Sequence record: NC_135732.1
DNA from: a phage
Reading direction: 5' to 3' (one strand)
DNA length: 64,000 bases
Part shown: in pieces, positions 3,820-44,590 of the stretch
Layout: each line of letters opens with the position of its first letter
Position numbering within the stretch: the stretch's first letter is position 1
The notes under the pieces: model-generated
The model's input: the letters and a program-made list of their open reading frames with translations, nothing else
The model's database searches: none
What the model was told of the DNA's origin: nothing
Made by a program: the position numbers and the translations under genes

Positions 3820-4075
3820 TCTTGCTAAACCTGTAGAAGCACACCAGTTTGATGGAAGCTCTTCATCAGTATCTGATCTGCAACGGTGGATTGATACAGG
3901 TGTGTTTACATCGTCACCTGTTCGGACCAGAGATATTCGTCGCATGTGTGAGCTTGTTGAGCCGTTTGGCAACTTGGTTTTGTACCAGGGAGATTGGTTA
4001 GTTGACTTTATGGGAGACTGGTTGGTAATGAGTAAAGAAGAGATGTTTAAAATTTTTAAGGAAGAGGCCGAGTAA
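3806..4075 (+). CDS. hypothetical protein
   Basis: AAGGAGG RBS before ATG. Confidence 0.55.
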   Translation: MPLFNLAKPVEAHQFDGSSSSVSDLQRWIDTGVFTSSPVRTRDIRRMCELVEPFGNLVLYQGDWLVDFMGDWLVMSKEEMFKIFKEEAE

Positions 4076-19286: not shown

Positions 19287-19565
19287 ATGAGCTGCGAAAA
19301 ATCTTTTTTCATCATCATTTACGGTAAGGATAACTGCCCACATTGTGTCAGAGCAAAAGAATTTGCAATCAGCAAAGGTCTGCCTTTTGTATATAAGACA
19401 CTTGGCGAGGGCTACACAAAAGAAGAGCTTATTGAGAAGTGTAGTCCAATCGTCCCCCGAACGTTGCCGCAGATCTTCTTAGAAAGCGATCTTGACAGTA
19501 TCCATATAGGCGGTGCCGACGATTTCATCTCTTTTGTTAAGAATGGTTTTGGAGAGAAAAAGTGA
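19287..19565 (+). CDS. glutaredoxin / NrdH-like redoxin
   Basis: CPHC active site (YGKDNCPHCVRAK). Confidence 0.7.
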   Translation: MSCEKSFFIIIYGKDNCPHCVRAKEFAISKGLPFVYKTLGEGYTKEELIEKCSPIVPRTLPQIFLESDLDSIHIGGADDFISFVKNGFGEKK

Positions 19566-20422
19566 AAGTTGTAAAACGGGACGGTAGAGAAGAGTTCTAT
19601 AACGGAATTAAGGTGATCAAGGCGGCAGAGTCCGCCTTACTTGAGTCTGGACATACTGAAGAAGAAGCTTACCGGATCGCCTGCGCGGTTAATGAAGTTG
19701 TTGCTAACAATCTACCAACCGACCAGTGCACAATCTCTGTAAAAAATATCCATATCCTTGTTGAAGATGCTCTTATGGATATGGGTTTAAAATGTGCAGC
19801 CAGAGAATACATCCAGTATAGACAGACAAGAGATAATAACAGAGAGGCAGGTGGAAAACTGCTTGCAGATATTAGTGGCTTCTTGGATCGAACTTGTGAT
19901 GAATTTACAAAAGAAAACGCAAATAAGCCTACTAATCATGTACACACTCATCGCGACCTGCTTGCAGGTATTCTTAGCAAACACCTTGCATCAACACAGA
20001 TCCTGCCAGACCGTGTCTCCGAAGAGCACAATAAAGGCTTCATCCATGTGCATGATCTTGACTACTTGATCAGTCCGTTAACAAACTGTTGTTTGGTAAA
20101 TTATCCAGATATGTTGGAAAACGGATTCAACATTGGTAACGCCCATGTCAGTAAGCCGAAGTCAATAGGGGTTGCAACAACAATCCTTAGCCAAATCTCT
20201 AGTGCGGTAGCTAGTGCTCAATATGGGGGTCAGACTATGAGCCATATTGATCATTATCTGGCACAGTATGCTGAAGCGACCTATGAGAAGAACCTTAAAT
20301 TTTGCCAGGAACATTGGTTGCCAGATGCTGAGACTGTTGCAATGCAAATGACAGATAAAGACGTATTTGACAGCATGCAGACTTTGCTCTATCAAATCAA
20401 TACATTAACTTCTGTCAACGGT
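19562..20422 (+). CDS. nrdD: anaerobic ribonucleotide reductase NrdD, exon 1
   Basis: ATP-cone start MKVVKRDGREE (GTG start); frame ends at TAA 20423, which is the proposed first intron codon. Confidence 0.7.
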
Positions 20423-21219
20423 TAACAAACTGGCCGTTGTAAAACTCTCCTAACCTCATAAGAGGGGTCGGTAAATCCGGCTAACGGGGAACGCTAAGGC
20501 GAAAGCTATGCCAATCCCGTGACTAGTTCTTACAGGAGTTGGAACGGTTGTAACGACTAACGAAAGGCAGAAATGCTTGACAAACATTTCTGAACCAAGT
20601 AGTGTAGGGGTTAGTTGAAATACTAACTTCGAAATGGAGAGGCTCTATGAAAAAGATCATTCTTAATGGTGAAGAATCAAACTATGTGATTGATGAGGTT
20701 GGAAACGTATACGGAAAACGTGGAATGCTACACCCAATATTGTGGGGAGGTTATGGAAAAGGTAACAAGCATGTTAAACGCCGTTATATGTACTCTTTCG
20801 ACCACAAAGGTAAAAAGATTCGAATCCAAACCTCAAGGATTGTTGCCTTGTATTGTTTGCCGGATGTCCCAGAAGACCCTGAAAACTGGGAAGTGAATCA
20901 TAAAGATGGCAATACATTGAATGATCATCCGTCTAACCTAGAGTGGGTTTTGCCGGAAGATAATAAGAGACATGCTTTCCGAACAGGACTTTGTCCAGGT
21001 AAGTGCTATAGGAAAGTGCAGGCATACAAAGGGAAAACCTTGGTGGGTGAATATCCTTCACTCTATGCCTGTGCAAAAGCCTTAAATTTGAACGTAGGTA
21101 ACGTTCATAGGGCTATTGAAGGAAATGCCGAAGGTAAGCATCTCACAATAAAGGGTTATTATCTTATTGAAGTAGAGTAAGAGATAGTCTGGCCCTGTGG
21201 AAACACAGGGAGGAGACAG
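20423..21219 (+). mobile_element. group I self-splicing intron in nrdD (boundaries approximate)
   Basis: P/Q/R/S-like core elements AACGGGGAAC 20483-20492, CAATCCCGTG 20512-20521, GTAACGACTAACG 20550-20562, GAGATAGTCTGG 21181-21192; P9 hairpin 21193-21210; P1 pairing of exon CAACGGT with GCCGTTG 20433-20439. Confidence 0.65.
20647..21180 (+). CDS. HNH homing endonuclease (intron-encoded)
   Basis: VNHKDGNTLNDHPSNLEWV HNH motif; GGAGAGG RBS; inside the intron. Confidence 0.75.
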   Translation: MKKIILNGEESNYVIDEVGNVYGKRGMLHPILWGGYGKGNKHVKRRYMYSFDHKGKKIRIQTSRIVALYCLPDVPEDPENWEVNHKDGNTLNDHPSNLEWVLPEDNKRHAFRTGLCPGKCYRKVQAYKGKTLVGEYPSLYACAKALNLNVGNVHRAIEGNAEGKHLTIKGYYLIEVE

Positions 21220-22482
21220 CAGACTCCATTCATCACATTAAGTTTAGGACTGGATACCTCGGTCTTTGGTAGAATGATTACCAAAAATTACTTGAAAGTC
21301 CACAAAATGGGTCTTGGTGAAGAACGGATCACACCTGTGTTCCCTAAAGTGCTGTTCTTCCTAGAAGAGGGTGTCAACATGAACCCTGGAGATCCTAACT
21401 ATGATTTGAAACGATTAGCTCTGGAATGCTGTGCAGAACGTATCTATCCTGACTTCGTATCTGTACCACTAAATAGGAAAGTGACAGGCTCGACAGATGG
21501 CAAAGTAACGAGCATGGGTTGCCGGAGTTTTCTTAGCAAATACAATGACTTGGAAACAGGCGAGGAGAAATACCTTGGCAGATTTAACTTAGGCGTTGTT
21601 AGCCTTAACCTGCCAATGATTGCGGCAAAAGCTAAGACGGAAGGTGTTGATTTCTTTGCAGTTCTTGACGAATACTTGGATCTTGCATACGAGGCTCACC
21701 TTGTAAGGGTTAACCGTCTAAAAGGAACAAAGGCAGGGCAGAACCCCATCATGTGGTGTGAAGGCGCTCTTGCTCGCCTGGATCCTGAAGAAAGTATTGA
21801 TAAACTCTTCTATGATGGGTACGCTTCCATCAGCATTGGGTATATTGGTGTGTATGAAACCTGTCAGATTTTGGGCAGAGAAGGTGACAAGGCTTTAGCT
21901 CTTGGAATCCTTCAGCACATGAGAGATGCTTGTGAGCGGTACAAGAAGGAAAGTAGACTAGCATTTAGCTTGTACGGCACTCCTTCTGAGAGTCTATGCT
22001 ATAAAGCTGCAACCTGTCTGGATCGTGAATATCCTGAAGTGTTGAAGCACGAGCATGAATATCTCACCAACAGTTTCCATCAGCCAGTATGGATAAATAG
22101 CTCTCCTTTTGATAAGTGGGAGTATGAGGAAGGTTTTGCTATGATCTCCTCTGGTGGCAACATCGGATACGTAGAAACACCTAACCTGAAAAACAACCTG
22201 GATGCTTTAGAGGCTCTTGTTGACTTCGGGTATAAACACATTATGTATTTTGGTATTAACCAACCTGTGGATAAATGTCTCAAGTGTGGTTTCTCTGGTG
22301 AGTTCAGTGCAACAGCTAAAGGCTTTGTATGCCCAGAGTGTGGAAACCATGAAGAGGGAACGATCAGTGTAATTCGACGTGTGTCTGGATACCTTTCCAG
22401 TCCTAACTCCCGTCCTTACAATAAAGGTAAGCAAGCGGAAGTTATCGAGCGAGTTAAGCACTACGGAAGTTGTGGTTGCTGA
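21220..22482 (+). CDS. nrdD: anaerobic ribonucleotide reductase NrdD, exon 2
   Basis: C-terminal glycyl-radical region RRVSGYLSSP and Cys cluster CLKCG...CPECG; frame open from 21181; 3' splice site after G 21219 (alternatives 21210-21261). Confidence 0.65.
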   Translation, partial: QTPFITLSLGLDTSVFGRMITKNYLKVHKMGLGEERITPVFPKVLFFLEEGVNMNPGDPNYDLKRLALECCAERIYPDFVSVPLNRKVTGSTDGKVTSMGCRSFLSKYNDLETGEEKYLGRFNLGVVSLNLPMIAAKAKTEGVDFFAVLDEYLDLAYEAHLVRVNRLKGTKAGQNPIMWCEGALARLDPEESIDKLFYDGYASISIGYIGVYETCQILGREGDKALALGILQHMRDACERYKKESRLAFSLYGTPSESLCYKAATCLDREYPEVLKHEHEYLTNSFHQPVWINSSPFDKWEYEEGFAMISSGGNIGYVETPNLKNNLDALEALVDFGYKHIMYFGINQPVDKCLKCGFSGEFSATAKGFVCPECGNHEEGTISVIRRVSGYLSSPNSRPYNKGKQAEVIERVKHYGSCGC

Positions 22483-37978: not shown

Positions 37979-38098
37979 AGCACCGAGCCCACACAGGTTC
38001 CTCATGCTAAAGCATGACCTGAAGAGGCAAACGTGCATAATTCCTGTGCATTGAAACGTATAAACCCTGTTCACACTCTCATTCACAGAGGAGATTTC

Positions 38099-38314
38099 AT
38101 GAAGATAGAAATATTTGGTGGGGCTGACAACACTCGTGGCCTGATTTACCTTGAATTCGATGAATCATACCTGCCAGAGGTGTTAAATATAGACTCTGTT
38201 GCTGAGGCTTTGGGAGTAAACCCTAAAGAACTCCACTCTTGTGCTGAGATCGATGGTTGGGAAGAGACCATGAACATTGATTTCAGTGAAGTAGAGGATG
38301 AACCGCTGGACTGA
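38099..38314 (+). CDS. small acidic protein (MKIEI family-like)
   Basis: AGGAGA RBS then ATG 38099; track ORF started upstream. Confidence 0.5.
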   Translation: MKIEIFGGADNTRGLIYLEFDESYLPEVLNIDSVAEALGVNPKELHSCAEIDGWEETMNIDFSEVEDEPLD

Positions 38315-38443
38315 CACACAATTAGCTGCCCGGCTAAAGTGCTGGAAGCGCACCTATAACACATATTTCAACTAAATTTCCCACCACCACAATCACTTAC
38401 CTACCACACGTGACTGTTTGCTTGTTTAGTGAGCAGTCATGCC

Positions 38444-38471
38444 TTGACATTCTTGCCTATCCTGATAAAAT
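38444..38471 (+). promoter_or_regulatory. sigma70-like promoter firing into non-coding region
   Basis: TTGACA, 16-nt spacer, TAAAAT; no credible ORF downstream. Confidence 0.4.
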
Positions 38472-39791
38472 TAAGTTCTTCTCTTTTCTTTTACCGAGTA
38501 ATTCGGGTTTTCTGTTCTCTTCGGTTTGAAGGGGTATGGAGATACACCTGAGTGAACAGGGTGAACAACCGAACCATTAGCTATGGCATTAGCATGGCGA
38601 AGCGGACGGGTGACGAAAGAGGGGCCGGAGGACACCAGTCACTGCCATATGATATATGGGTGATAACCTGAAGAGTCTGAATAAGTGTTTAAGTACCAGT
38701 CAGAGGAAAAGGTGAATGGTAGCCGAAGGGGGAGGGGGGGTTTCTTGTATCTTTAATTTGTATATTATGTATACACTTGTAAACCAATTTCATATGAATC
38801 TGTTTACCACACAAAGTGGATTGAGACAAATATTACCTATTAAACTTGAATTATTTATAGAAAATACCACAACACACCTTAAGTCTTTGATTTTACACAT
38901 AAATCTTACAGATATTCAACCTCCATATTTAACATACTTGTAACATATCCTATACCACACCTGCCTGATCAATTCCCCCAACTACATCCTCTATATTTTC
39001 CCTGTCTGTACTACCCCATCCCCGCCGGGAGTCCCGTCATATCTGGCTTTCCAGCAAATATCACACCCACAAATATCATTGCCTGAAGAGGGTTTCATCC
39101 TCTAATACCTGCCTTACCTGAAGAGCGCTTCATACACCACGTAAATTTTTTAATTGACCTGCAATTTTCCCGTCATGACCCCCTGCCCCGCCGGAGAGGT
39201 TGGCTTTTCCCACACAGACCTGAAGAGTCAGCCAGAAATATCTGAACAGGCCCAATTCTACCACGATTTTGACCTGACCTACAGGAGTGCTGCCAGGCGG
39301 ACGAAATGGGAATACTTCTCATTCTTATAATAATTCTCAAATATCGAGGCAGTGAAGCAAATTAATAGGTGAGGCCGTTCACATAGTGGCACAACATTTG
39401 CAATCTATTTTGTGTGGGGGAATGAGAATACCTATCATTGTGAGAACTGTTATCATTACGGGCAATTTAACATAATACCCATTATGCGCACCACTGGCGA
39501 TACATACAGGGATTGATAACATGAGTTACTGTTTACGCATATAACAATTATATTTATTACTATTTGTGTGGGATATAGTTAGCAGCCGATAGATTAGATA
39601 TTGACCTGCGGACTTCTGACCGTCTAGACGTCTAAACGCCCACACAGCAAGAGTTATACATACATCGCTGAATGTAAACAGGGCCGCAAAAATGCTACCA
39701 TACCAGTTTGTAAATTTTTCATGCAGCACTTGACAAAGAGGAGAAAAACTTGTCTGACATAATGTGACCTAACTGACACAACATGACACTT

Positions 39792-39875
39792 TTACACACC
39801 TATTAGTTTACACACTGGATTGTTTACATTCCTGATTGTTCACATGCTAACCATTTACATGATTGACTGTTTACA
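39792..39875. repeat. iteron-like array of TTTACA(C/T)A motifs
   Basis: Six copies at about 15-16 bp spacing (39792, 39807, 39823, 39838 variant, 39854, 39870). Confidence 0.6.
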
Positions 39876-39888
39876 CACCGATAATCAG

Positions 39889-40138
39889 CCATGCCATTCG
39901 TTTGCATGACAATAATTATACATGACAATAATCGCACTGATTATAATTAGCATGACATAATATAAAAGCAGGGCAACTATTAGCAGATCTATAGTTGCCT
40001 TGCTTGTTATGTCATGATTAACTAAATACAAGGCAACTATGATCTGATTAATAGTTTGCAGACAAACTATCACGGGGGTGATGGTTACTGCTTTTATATT
40101 ATGTCGCGACTCCGTCGCGCCATGCCATTCGTTTGCAT
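39889..40138. repeat. symmetric element: 18-bp direct repeats flanking inverted repeats
   Basis: CATGCCATTCGTTTGCAT at 39890 and 40121; inverted arms 39950-39971 and 40089-40111; internal hairpin 39971-39998. Confidence 0.6.
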
Positions 40139-40763
40139 AGTTGCCTTATTGTTACAGATAAAATAATTGTATTGTTAATTATTTCTTATCTTTCTATTAG
40201 TCATCTAATGATTTCAGTTAATATAGTAACGTACAGTAAACATTAGACGACTAAAGATTTCTCTGCTTATGGTAACCTAACGTGACAATTCCAGACTGTT
40301 TACGAAAAATGTTGACACCTGGGCCGATTTATGTTATGCAGTTTACACGAATAATTATTTTATGCAGGTATTGACTATTCCGTTATTCTACGGTTGGAAT
40401 AAATGCTTAGCAGGCTATAGAATGGCGAGCGTACGTAAATTCTGAGATCTGGCGGCTATAGTTATACTCGATTTTTCACGTAGAAAACGCTTTTGTAGTT
40501 ATGTAAGTGTATGACTTATAAGAATTTTTAGTTGTTGACAAGCTATTGAAGATATGCATCAGGTTAAATTTTGTGCAAATGCTGCATTACGTGCAATTTT
40601 GGAAGGAAAAACGTGTAAAAATGGCCCTGCTACCACACAATGAAAAATTATGCAATAGTTATTTTATATGTATGTTTGTACAGTGGGGTTAATTGCTGGC
40701 TTGTTGATTATTCCATTTGCCAGGCGGGGCCATTTGTGGTAGGAAAAGAGGAGACAAAAAGAA

Positions 40764-40788
40764 AGGGGCTTTAAGCCCCTGACCGTGC
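40764..40788 (-). terminator. rho-independent terminator for minus-strand block
   Basis: GGGGC-TTTAA-GCCCC hairpin followed on the minus strand by TTTCTTTTT. Confidence 0.6.
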
Positions 40789-40799
40789 ACCTTGTTGTA

Positions 40800-41064
40800 T
40801 TATTTGTTGCTCATCCAGTTTTCCCAAGCTGCCTGATAATCTGCCTCACTACGGCGGATCTCTTCTTGCTCTTCAAGGCGGATCTCTTCTTCCAGGTACC
40901 CCAAGATGTCAGCCTTTTTGGTCTGGCGTAACATCCAATCATCTTTTTTTACGAGTGAAGATCTTATAAGCTTTCTCGCAAACCTCTTTTTTGCTACCTT
41001 TCTGGACTTCAAGAATTCTGTAGGCCATGTACTGAACTAATTTAAGCTGATCCAGACGTTTCAT
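40800..41064 (-). pseudogene. small basic protein gene with apparent 1-nt frameshift at an A7 tract
   Basis: ATG 41064 frame stops at 40939; downstream frame (track ORF 40800..41012, TTG start) continues; junction at homopolymer 40944-40950. Confidence 0.4.
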
Positions 41065-41141
41065 GATGTTTCCTCTTTATGTGGTTCGTTTTGATTAGTT
41101 GATAATACAGCAGTTCGCAGATCAGTCTTTAGCAATTCATG

Positions 41142-41360
41142 CTATTTACTCACAACGGTGTCGAAAACAAATTTTTCTTTATTGTCTAAACTCACGTATC
41201 CGATTCGACCACGCAAGCCGCAAGTAGTGCCGTACTCGTAACCATTAAGGCCTTTAACCTTCCAATCCGTACCCATTAAAACCGCATTATATTCCTGACC
41301 AACTACAAAAGCGCCCCCAGTCGATTCAATGCAAACAACTTTAATTTTACGGGTTGTCAT
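41142..41360 (-). CDS. hypothetical protein
   Basis: ATG 41360 with AGAAAG upstream. Confidence 0.5.
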   Translation of the reverse strand: MTTRKIKVVCIESTGGAFVVGQEYNAVLMGTDWKVKGLNGYEYGTTCGLRGRIGYVSLDNKEKFVFDTVVSK

Positions 41361-44392: not shown

Positions 44393-44590
44393 GGGGGAGA
44401 CAACCACCGGGGATGGGCGCTGCATAAAATGAGAACGGTTATCATTATCATTTAAAAATTTATGCAAAAAATCCTTGCCTTCTTTGTCCTGTGTGATACT
44501 ATAATAACAAGCCGGGGCAACAGGGGCCGGGAGACAATCACCGGGCCTGCCCGTTATTCTGCAAACGAGAATGATTATCATTCAAAATTC
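44393..44590. repeat. two copies of a roughly 65-nt repeat
   Basis: GAGACAA(C/T)CACCGGG...GAGAA(C/T)G(G/A)TTATCATT...AAAATT at 44393-44460 and 44527-44590. Confidence 0.55.

Follow-up and report, generated by a model that had tools for sequence, protein, structure and literature searches.

The closest described relatives of the locus analysed here carry short exact terminal repeats. Terminal redundancies of 458 bp were published for the phages EdH4 and HdK5 (Korf et al. 2019), a 443-bp direct terminal repeat (DTR) at 200-642 was mapped by PhageTerm in the Cronobacter phage PBES-02, a Certrevirus (PhageTerm paper), and a 514-bp DTR at 116316-116829 was mapped by coverage and PhageTerm in the Klebsiella phage KPP-1, a Mydovirus. 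In their accessible sections, the HdK5/EdH4, PBES-02 and KPP-1 papers give repeat lengths or coordinates only; those sections do not link the repeat to the 'non-coding box' of phage rV5, to a cut-site consensus, to a conserved box or to repeat arrays. That box appears on the rV5 genome map as a grey box 'labeled non-coding', and the rV5 genome paper ascribes the accompanying change in GC skew to gene orientation and states that the expected bidirectional terminators were not found in it. Here we analyse the corresponding region, 38315-40800, in a 64,000-nt stretch of sequence record NC_135732.1 (the window, whose coordinates are used throughout), which belongs to the ~137-kb genome of a Vequintavirus (rV5-like) myovirus of E. 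coli. The region very probably represents the genome terminus, or concatemer junction, and combines a conserved packaging core with genus-specific accessory parts. Its segment 39296-39754 is the ortholog of the published DTRs of HdK5, EdH4, PBES-02 and KPP-1, and these are the same element.

Probable genome termini and cleavage sites

With window positions 38000-41200 as the query, 133 phage records were matched at 90-97% identity, and the orthologous ~2.5 kb is without a credible gene in all annotated relatives. Several GenBank records open within the region, at two recurring coordinates. In the HdK5 record (MK373780) the opening 459 nt recur unchanged as the closing 459 nt; they start at the equivalent of window 39296 and end at 39754, and the window segment corresponds to the HdK5 terminal repeat nucleotide for nucleotide. 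Position 39754 is also the last of the ECP2303 and Aya records, and 39296 is the first of the bov phage records; for EdH4 and YN3 the end positions are estimates only, not obtained from alignment. HdK5 and a 148,842-bp IMG/VR genome, which has an identical 519-bp repeat at both ends, are orthologous genomes in which the same few-hundred-bp sequence stands at both extremities. In PBES-02 and KPP-1 the repeat likewise lies inside a gene-free gap between convergent gene blocks.

A conservation profile was built by aligning the window with 19 relatives (20 genomes in total). It displays a nearly invariant segment (38415-38765), a small conserved island (39465-39514), a hypervariable segment (39765-39964) that is exactly the zone where iteron-like repeats had been proposed, and a highly conserved segment (39965-40114) that matches the inverted-repeat element described below. 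Codon periodicity is absent from all frames of the DTR, and both of its boundaries coincide with a sharp change, from conserved sequence inside the repeat to indel-rich or hypervariable sequence outside.

Both ends of the repeat fall within a common short motif, in which the cut is marked here by a slash (Table 1). The left site is kept in 19 of the 20 vequintaviruses, the remaining one having a central T, and the right site in all 20. The PBES-02 boundaries, TTTTGCCT/GGCAAAA and CATGCC/TGGCAG, form one 9-bp palindrome at both ends, and those of KPP-1 read TGCTA/GACG and, on the opposite strand, TGCTA/AACA. The quasi-palindrome TGYYW/RRCR fits these six ends from three genera in the same register when read on the strand whose 5' end arises, and the mature 5' nucleotide at both ends is a purine directly after the central A/T. 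With the pattern taken from the other two genera, the KPP-1 pair would occur by chance with a probability of ~1e-5, or ~1e-4 with ±1 nt of slack.

Within 3.2 kb, the only cross-genus similarity is a 26-bp dyad box near the middle of the repeat. The DTRs mapped in KPP-1 and PBES-02 both contain it; it coincides with an island of low nucleotide diversity (pi 0.015) and occurs once in the window, where 0 occurrences are expected. The box is present in 21 IMG/VR contigs, mostly of 120-153 kb; a TGYYWRRCR site is found 175-220 bp to its left in 16 of these 21 loci and 222-311 bp to its right in 18, against a background of 2e-4 per nt, or ~0.02 expected per zone. In all, ~20 Vequintavirinae genomes share one arrangement, in which a site, 175-220 bp, the 26-bp box, 200-290 bp and a second site follow in turn. 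The first bases of the 148,842-bp genome, GACGGAC…, directly follow TGTTA/, and its last, …AAGTGTT, directly precede /TAGCA; these are the exact predicted nucleotides, and the cut-site prediction is therefore borne out at both ends. Conserved cleavage signals thus stand at both boundaries of the repeat.

Three irregularities near terminal repeats were recorded along the way. Shigella phage CM1 (L017, MK962749, locus 4028-4055) carries a ~525-bp tandem duplication whose second copy restarts exactly at 39296, which could have arisen when the terminal repeat was assembled or could stem from genuine joining of ends. In phi92-like BME3 (L025/L026, PP239276) duplications of 343, 415 and 789 nt and several N surround the annotated DTR at the record ends, which points to a terminal repeat left unresolved by the assembly. 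Indels also cluster at ~39280, immediately outside the left cut. The insert of 35-60 nt that relatives have there is of either of two unrelated kinds, a CTACAGGAG… module or a hairpin module with GGCCCGAAGGGTC/CTAGCTTTCAGCTAG, and both are missing from the window.

Table 1. Coordinates of features in and around the region (window positions; slash, cut)
Feature	Position	Strand	Remarks
Five CCTGAAGAG and two CCCCGCCGG copies	38018-39227	+	all upstream of the left cut
Last gene of the plus-strand block, rV5 ORF163 ortholog	38099-38314	+	left border; 216-nt CDS annotated in relatives
Strong sigma70-type promoter, predicted	38444-38471	+	predicted start ~38478
Ultra-conserved ~265-nt block, candidate non-coding RNA	38478-38745	+	5' pyrimidine tract; 3' G5AG7 (38728-38740), then TTT
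AT-rich zone, at least 75% AT	38755-38894		directly after the G-run; >99th percentile of 60-nt windows in 64 kb
Left cleavage site TGCCA/GGCG	39291-39299	+	cut 39295/39296
DTR, 459 bp	39296-39754		once in the circularised window, twice in virion DNA
DTR core box TTTAACATAATACCCATTATGCGCAC	39466-39491	+	26 bp, dyad CATAAT-N4-ATTATG; candidate terminase recognition site
Right cleavage site TGTC/TGACA	39751-39759	+	perfect palindrome; cut 39754/39755
TGACA(C/T) array, ~10-bp spacing	39755-39789	+	starts at the right cut; reiterates the right half-site of the palindrome
TT(T/C)ACA array, six units, 16-bp period	39791-39877	+	
Cassette between 20-nt direct repeats (39888-39907, 40119-40138)	39888-40138		deleted in phage FV3
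Long imperfect palindrome, two face-to-face intrinsic terminators	39954-40105		
Terminator hairpin, U-tract 39965-39955	40005-39966	-	
Terminator hairpin, U-tract 40092-40102	40058-40091	+	
Spacer, AT-rich, moderately conserved	40139-40754		40135-40234 up to 82% AT
Intrinsic terminator ending the minus-strand gene block	40755-40780	-	right border

Accessory elements beside the repeat

The first-pass annotation of the window had listed a number of repeats and signals in the region. All of them are present, at or a few bases from where they had been placed, and exceed chance, and the repeat clusters are unique or strongly over-represented within the 64 kb. Among them is a sigma70-like promoter at 38444, which stands as TTGACA-16-TGATAAAAT, with 11/12 matches and a TG extended -10; L005, the relative that has diverged furthest, retains both hexamers around a spacer of different sequence and length. 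Conservation spans the predicted start (~38478) to G5AG7TTT (~38743), a stretch that includes the G-rich tract formerly noted near 38725. Across this block pi is 0.000-0.03, against ~0.05 in the flanking genes, and identity is at least 97.5% in 118 genomes and at least 99% in 71; of two control segments of the same length, the one from nrdA attains 99% in 15 of 119 genomes and the one from the DNA polymerase gene in 32 of 117. In identity to phage LL12 the block ranks at the 99th percentile over 50 kb, a rank that is not decisive, as mosaic recombination yields other identical stretches. The G-run varies in length, being G5AG7 in the window and mostly G5AG6 elsewhere, which could be a real polymorphism or a homopolymer sequencing error.

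Only 13 sites of the block vary among 26 sequences, one hotspot being the loop of a hairpin CCATAT-GAT-ATATGG. In the consensus fold the variable sites lie mostly in loops and compensatory pairs are absent; the copies vary too little for covariation. The folding energy is ordinary (z = -0.98), and no codon signal was detected in the block. Rfam 15 gave no match in the whole window at gathering thresholds and, for 38300-40900 with E up to 10, only two chance-level miRNA matches with E above 2. Searches for the block in 5,426 E. coli genomes gave nothing, and in 50,697 phage records, with E allowed up to 1, every match stayed within the genus. The terminus regions of other genera have no counterpart of it; an exact-pattern scan of metagenomes yielded five more vequintavirus copies and two chance matches in GC-rich contigs. 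Our search of the literature for transcriptomes or described RNAs of such phages found nothing relevant. The block is probably a non-coding RNA driven by the 38444 promoter, and this 265-nt element under exceptional constraint is a candidate new phage RNA. More tentatively, and with the odds rather against it, it may be a new genus-restricted, highly expressed structured RNA that acts at the nearby genome end, its pyrimidine and G5AG7 tracts closing the fold. Such an RNA could serve as a primer or R-loop RNA for replication near the right terminus, as a junction-processing factor or in host takeover. As a lead only, the G5AG7TTT tract resembles the human mitochondrial CSB II (G5-6AG7-8); we know of no case in which bacterial RNA polymerase halts at G5AG7-like tracts. 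In the PBES-02 record, an unannotated ORF of ~78 aa (~149030-149270; L038 ~2530-2770), membrane-protein-like by eye, occupies the position of the vequintavirus block, with a promoter-like site of its own and a strong terminator.

Between the promoter and the left cut, CCTGAAGAG had been counted four times; these copies lie at 38667, 39082, 39117 and 39219, and a fifth is found at 38018. The 64 kb contain six on the plus strand and none on the minus strand, with ~0.25 expected per strand. A further repeat, reported twice near 39017 and 39180, proved to be CCCCGCCGG at 39020 and 39186. The cores of both motifs are conserved in the 20 genomes, while their flanking bases vary.

Two arrays adjoin the right cut. 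Of five TGACA repeats reported there, four are exact (39731, 39755, 39774 and 39784) and the fifth is TGACC at 39765; with TGAC[AC] 4 times in 45 nt, this is the sole such cluster within the 64 kb. The second array had been described as six TTTACA(C/T)A units at about 15 bp: the number is right, but the period is ~16 bp (16, 16, 16, 15, 16). TTTACA occurs at 39791, 39807, 39823, 39854 and 39870, and TTCACA at 39839, making 6 units in 90 nt where the next-best cluster elsewhere in the window has 2. In Certrevirus, Mydovirus and phi92-like phages (L037, L039, L025/L026 and most of L040-L058), Fur-box-like motifs with up to 16/19 matches to GATAATGATAATCATTATC were observed both within the terminal repeats and a short way past them, often 30-50 nt beyond the right cut. 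No such motif is claimed for the window terminus, where the match is weak (13/19); matches of 14-15/19 occur at window 44425-44585.

The cassette that follows is bounded by direct repeats previously given as 18 bp, which are in fact 20 nt long (GCCATGCCATTCGTTTGCAT at 39888 and 40119), and its loss in phage FV3 is a deletion between them. The perfect inverted repeats and internal hairpins seen earlier inside the cassette are confirmed: an 18-nt inverted repeat at 39954-39971 and 40088-40105 delimits a palindrome in which GGCAACTAT occurs four times in alternating orientation. The inverted repeat provides the stem bases and the U-tracts of both terminators, whose RNA hairpins (-20.3 and -20.1 kcal/mol, z -4.4 and -3.9) are each followed by UUUUAUAUUAU; one of the two was also detected by a terminator scan, and as single-stranded DNA the palindrome folds with z = -9.3. 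The cassette is a predicted bidirectional terminator that would halt transcription across the junction. The core of the palindrome is ~97-100% identical in nearly all of 117 records, dropping to ~83% where a 33-nt insert is present, and others have annotated it as a terminator in the Murica and Alma records. Relatives differ at ~39937 in whether they carry a GC-rich double-hairpin module of ~31 nt, GCCAGGTGACC(T)TTGGTCACCCCTTCGGGTG, which in one genome lies reverse-complemented right after CCTGAAGAG at 38027; variation at ~39937 and ~38027 involves loci L007-L011, L014, L016, L017 and L020. Judged by this distribution, the module appears to behave like a tiny mobile hairpin element. The 33-nt insert, located after 40006, is polymorphic in the same manner.

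Proposed packaging scheme and alternative readings

The PhageTerm paper lists exact terminal repeats of 160 bp for T7 and 231 bp for T3. With the ends assigned to it, the window phage is like both in having fixed ends and in a short exact direct repeat found at both of them and once per unit in concatemers, and like T7 in encoding a T7-type primase-helicase and a family-A polymerase. It differs in being a 137-kb myovirus with a repeat three times longer, in ending on both sides in a common quasi-palindrome with a conserved dyad box in mid-repeat, and in having genes that converge on the ends, whereas T7-type early genes read inward from the left end; unlike in T7, no phage RNA polymerase gene was seen in the window. 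In T7, repeat arrays (SRL/SRR) directly flank the terminal repeat and the phiOR promoter reads toward the right end, features that the window phage shares with its arrays beside the repeat and its predicted promoter toward the right end. In lambda, terminase nicks opposite strands symmetrically in the partly palindromic cosN, which accessory cosB sites adjoin, and the two nicks, 12 bp apart in one site, produce cohesive ends. The window phage has two separate sites 459 bp apart and a duplicated repeat as the product, which, unlike the lambda reaction, requires DNA synthesis.

In the replicating concatemer a single copy of the repeat would lie between neighbouring genomes. Terminase would recognise the repeat, most likely via the dyad box, and place a nick at each of the two sites, on opposite strands and 459 bp from each other; DNA polymerase would then lengthen the two 3' ends across the repeat by strand displacement, as in the classical T7-type scheme, and this fill-in would give each daughter genome a full copy of the repeat. 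We infer duplication by fill-in after staggered nicking from the symmetry of the 5' ends, and the scheme fits the T7-like replisome of the phage.

Several points weigh against placing fixed ends here. With 8 occurrences in the 64 kb, the degenerate 9-mer cannot alone set specificity; other determinants must contribute. The ends assigned to the window phage itself would be those of relatives 93-96% identical over the region, together with the conservation of the sites; we also infer, for the chemistry, nicks over double-strand cuts, and likewise the role of the box. The DTR boundaries annotated for BME3, a phage of a different subfamily (Stephanstirmvirinae), lack the motif. The rV5 paper and some later papers describe such genomes as circularly permuted or headful-packaged, and published statements to that effect exist for rV5, the bov phages and BpE1AUH. 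Were packaging headful, the region would hold at most a pac site and the common record ends would be assembly artefacts. The 'circularly permuted' reports rest on assembly or PhageTerm, and at least one of them used Nextera XT libraries; Nextera libraries lose termini according to the PhageTerm authors. By contrast, an exact 459-bp repeat has been deposited and published for HdK5 and EdH4, the short DTRs of PBES-02 and KPP-1 were mapped by PhageTerm and coverage, the records of independent groups end at identical nucleotides, and the cut sites are conserved at fixed distances in ~20 genomes, all of which makes headful packaging very improbable. We give equally little credence to the region being just a buffer where transcription converges, composed of terminators and drifting spacer DNA that accumulates repeats. 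The convergent blocks, three terminators, indel hotspots and small mobile hairpin modules would suit such a buffer, but several sub-segments are more conserved than the neighbouring genes, and the termini map to the region.

The first-pass annotation had offered the region as an origin or a packaging site. The 459-bp DTR with two cleavage sites inside the region upholds the packaging half; the half that called for an iteron origin fares badly. As an origin, the TTTACA array would bind an initiator or the host DnaA and open a nearby unwinding element, and it is indeed a regular 16-bp array unique in the 64 kb with AT-rich DNA less than 300 bp away; neither AT-rich zone (38755-38894 or 40135-40234) abuts it. 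Yet no other part of the region varies as much as the array (pi ~0.35): units are gained and lost, their number ranges from 1 to 8 among relatives, and the unit type depends on the clade (TTTACAC versus TTCACGC), so that the repeats are anything but constant. It is also absent from other genera with the terminus core, which have a Fur-box-like motif 30-50 nt past the cut instead, and phage FV3 has only a shortened array. The units, which had been called DnaA-box-like, agree with just 3-7 of the 9 positions of the DnaA box, no DnaA box (TTATNCACA) was found in 38315-40800 as consensus or with one mismatch, and no initiator gene adjoins. An iteron origin is accordingly hard to credit. The TGACA array, too, varies in copy number (1-11 in relatives) and is absent from other genera; variable copies and unit type, absence elsewhere and the lack of DnaA boxes mark the two arrays as accessory rather than core, and together they probably form a fast-evolving protein-binding platform at the left genome end. 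An origin of another kind, which could coexist with the terminus, would be primed by transcription, the RNA from 38444 hybridising at G5AG7 and priming synthesis into the AT-rich zone. The strong conserved predicted promoter, conservation bounded precisely by the predicted start on one side and the G-run with its T-tract on the other, the extreme AT-richness right after the block and the T7-type replisome all favour it. The order of promoter, RNA, G-run and AT-rich DNA is like that of ColE1 RNA II, T4 ori(uvsY) and mitochondrial CSB II, and such an origin would also resemble the R-loops of T4 ori(34) and the promoter plus AT-rich origins of T7. The block, however, is genus-specific, unlike those primer and R-loop RNAs; other Vequintavirinae genera share the replisome and the terminus core yet lack it, and an essential origin would need to be confined to the genus. 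Its 265 nearly invariant bases exceed the needs of a simple primer, and the turn in GC skew, which is real, as is the convergent gene layout reported earlier, sits where the coding strand switches and is accounted for by gene orientation. We therefore hold a transcription-primed origin to be unlikely, if less so than an iteron origin.

Since a terminal repeat has already been published for close relatives, the kind of element is known. New, as far as the searched literature shows, are the placement of the repeat in the rV5 non-coding box, the consensus for cutting and the box that accompanies it across the subfamily, and the ultra-conserved block driven by the promoter. A terminal repeat in this position accounts for the 'non-coding box' of the rV5 map, until now without explanation, and reconciles the descriptions of these very commonly isolated therapeutic coliphages as circularly permuted with those giving short terminal repeats. 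For the whole Vequintavirinae it supplies a testable consensus, TGYYW/RRCR, and a 26-bp recognition-box candidate, which should help in genome opening and annotation, in vitro packaging and genome engineering.

Coding status and neighbouring genes

The view that the region contains no credible ORF holds: most ORFs are interrupted in relatives, and the intact ones lack third-position bias, with 20-46% of diversity at codon position 3 compared with 68-89% in five flanking genes. By this codon-position analysis the small ORFs, including two intact ones inside the DTR, were rejected as genes; the 75-aa ORF spanning the G-run was rejected by codon positions and by the length polymorphism of the run. 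A search for tRNA and tmRNA genes found none. The gene at the left border is intact in 19 of the 20 genomes and has 69% of its diversity at codon position 3. IMG/VR yielded only three relatives of the flanking gene.

On the other side, at 40800-41066 on the minus strand, the ortholog of rV5 ORF165 (87 aa; 'DNA translocase FtsK' in some records) is split in the window by a +1 frameshift in an A-run, which is A7 here and A6 in phage nomo. The frameshift could be a sequencing error, a pseudogene or a case of slippage. Many relatives have an additional 420-nt gene between window positions 40780 and 40800 (rV5 ORF164, naswa_157, bas54_0134), which carries a 'Rel homology domain' note in Murica and is absent from the window.

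Further away, the anaerobic ribonucleotide reductase gene nrdD (19562-22482), in one piece in LL12, is divided in the window into 19562-20425 and 21274-22482. The insert of ~850 nt contains a 177-aa ORF (20647-21180) with an HNH-type motif (NHKDGN…NLEW) and is probably a homing-endonuclease or intron insertion; Rfam returned no intron match in it at the gathering score. Among the GenBank records, 19 of the MG0656xx series, labelled 'Campylobacter phage' and marked UNVERIFIED, are ordinary vequintaviruses, and their host labels are probably wrong.

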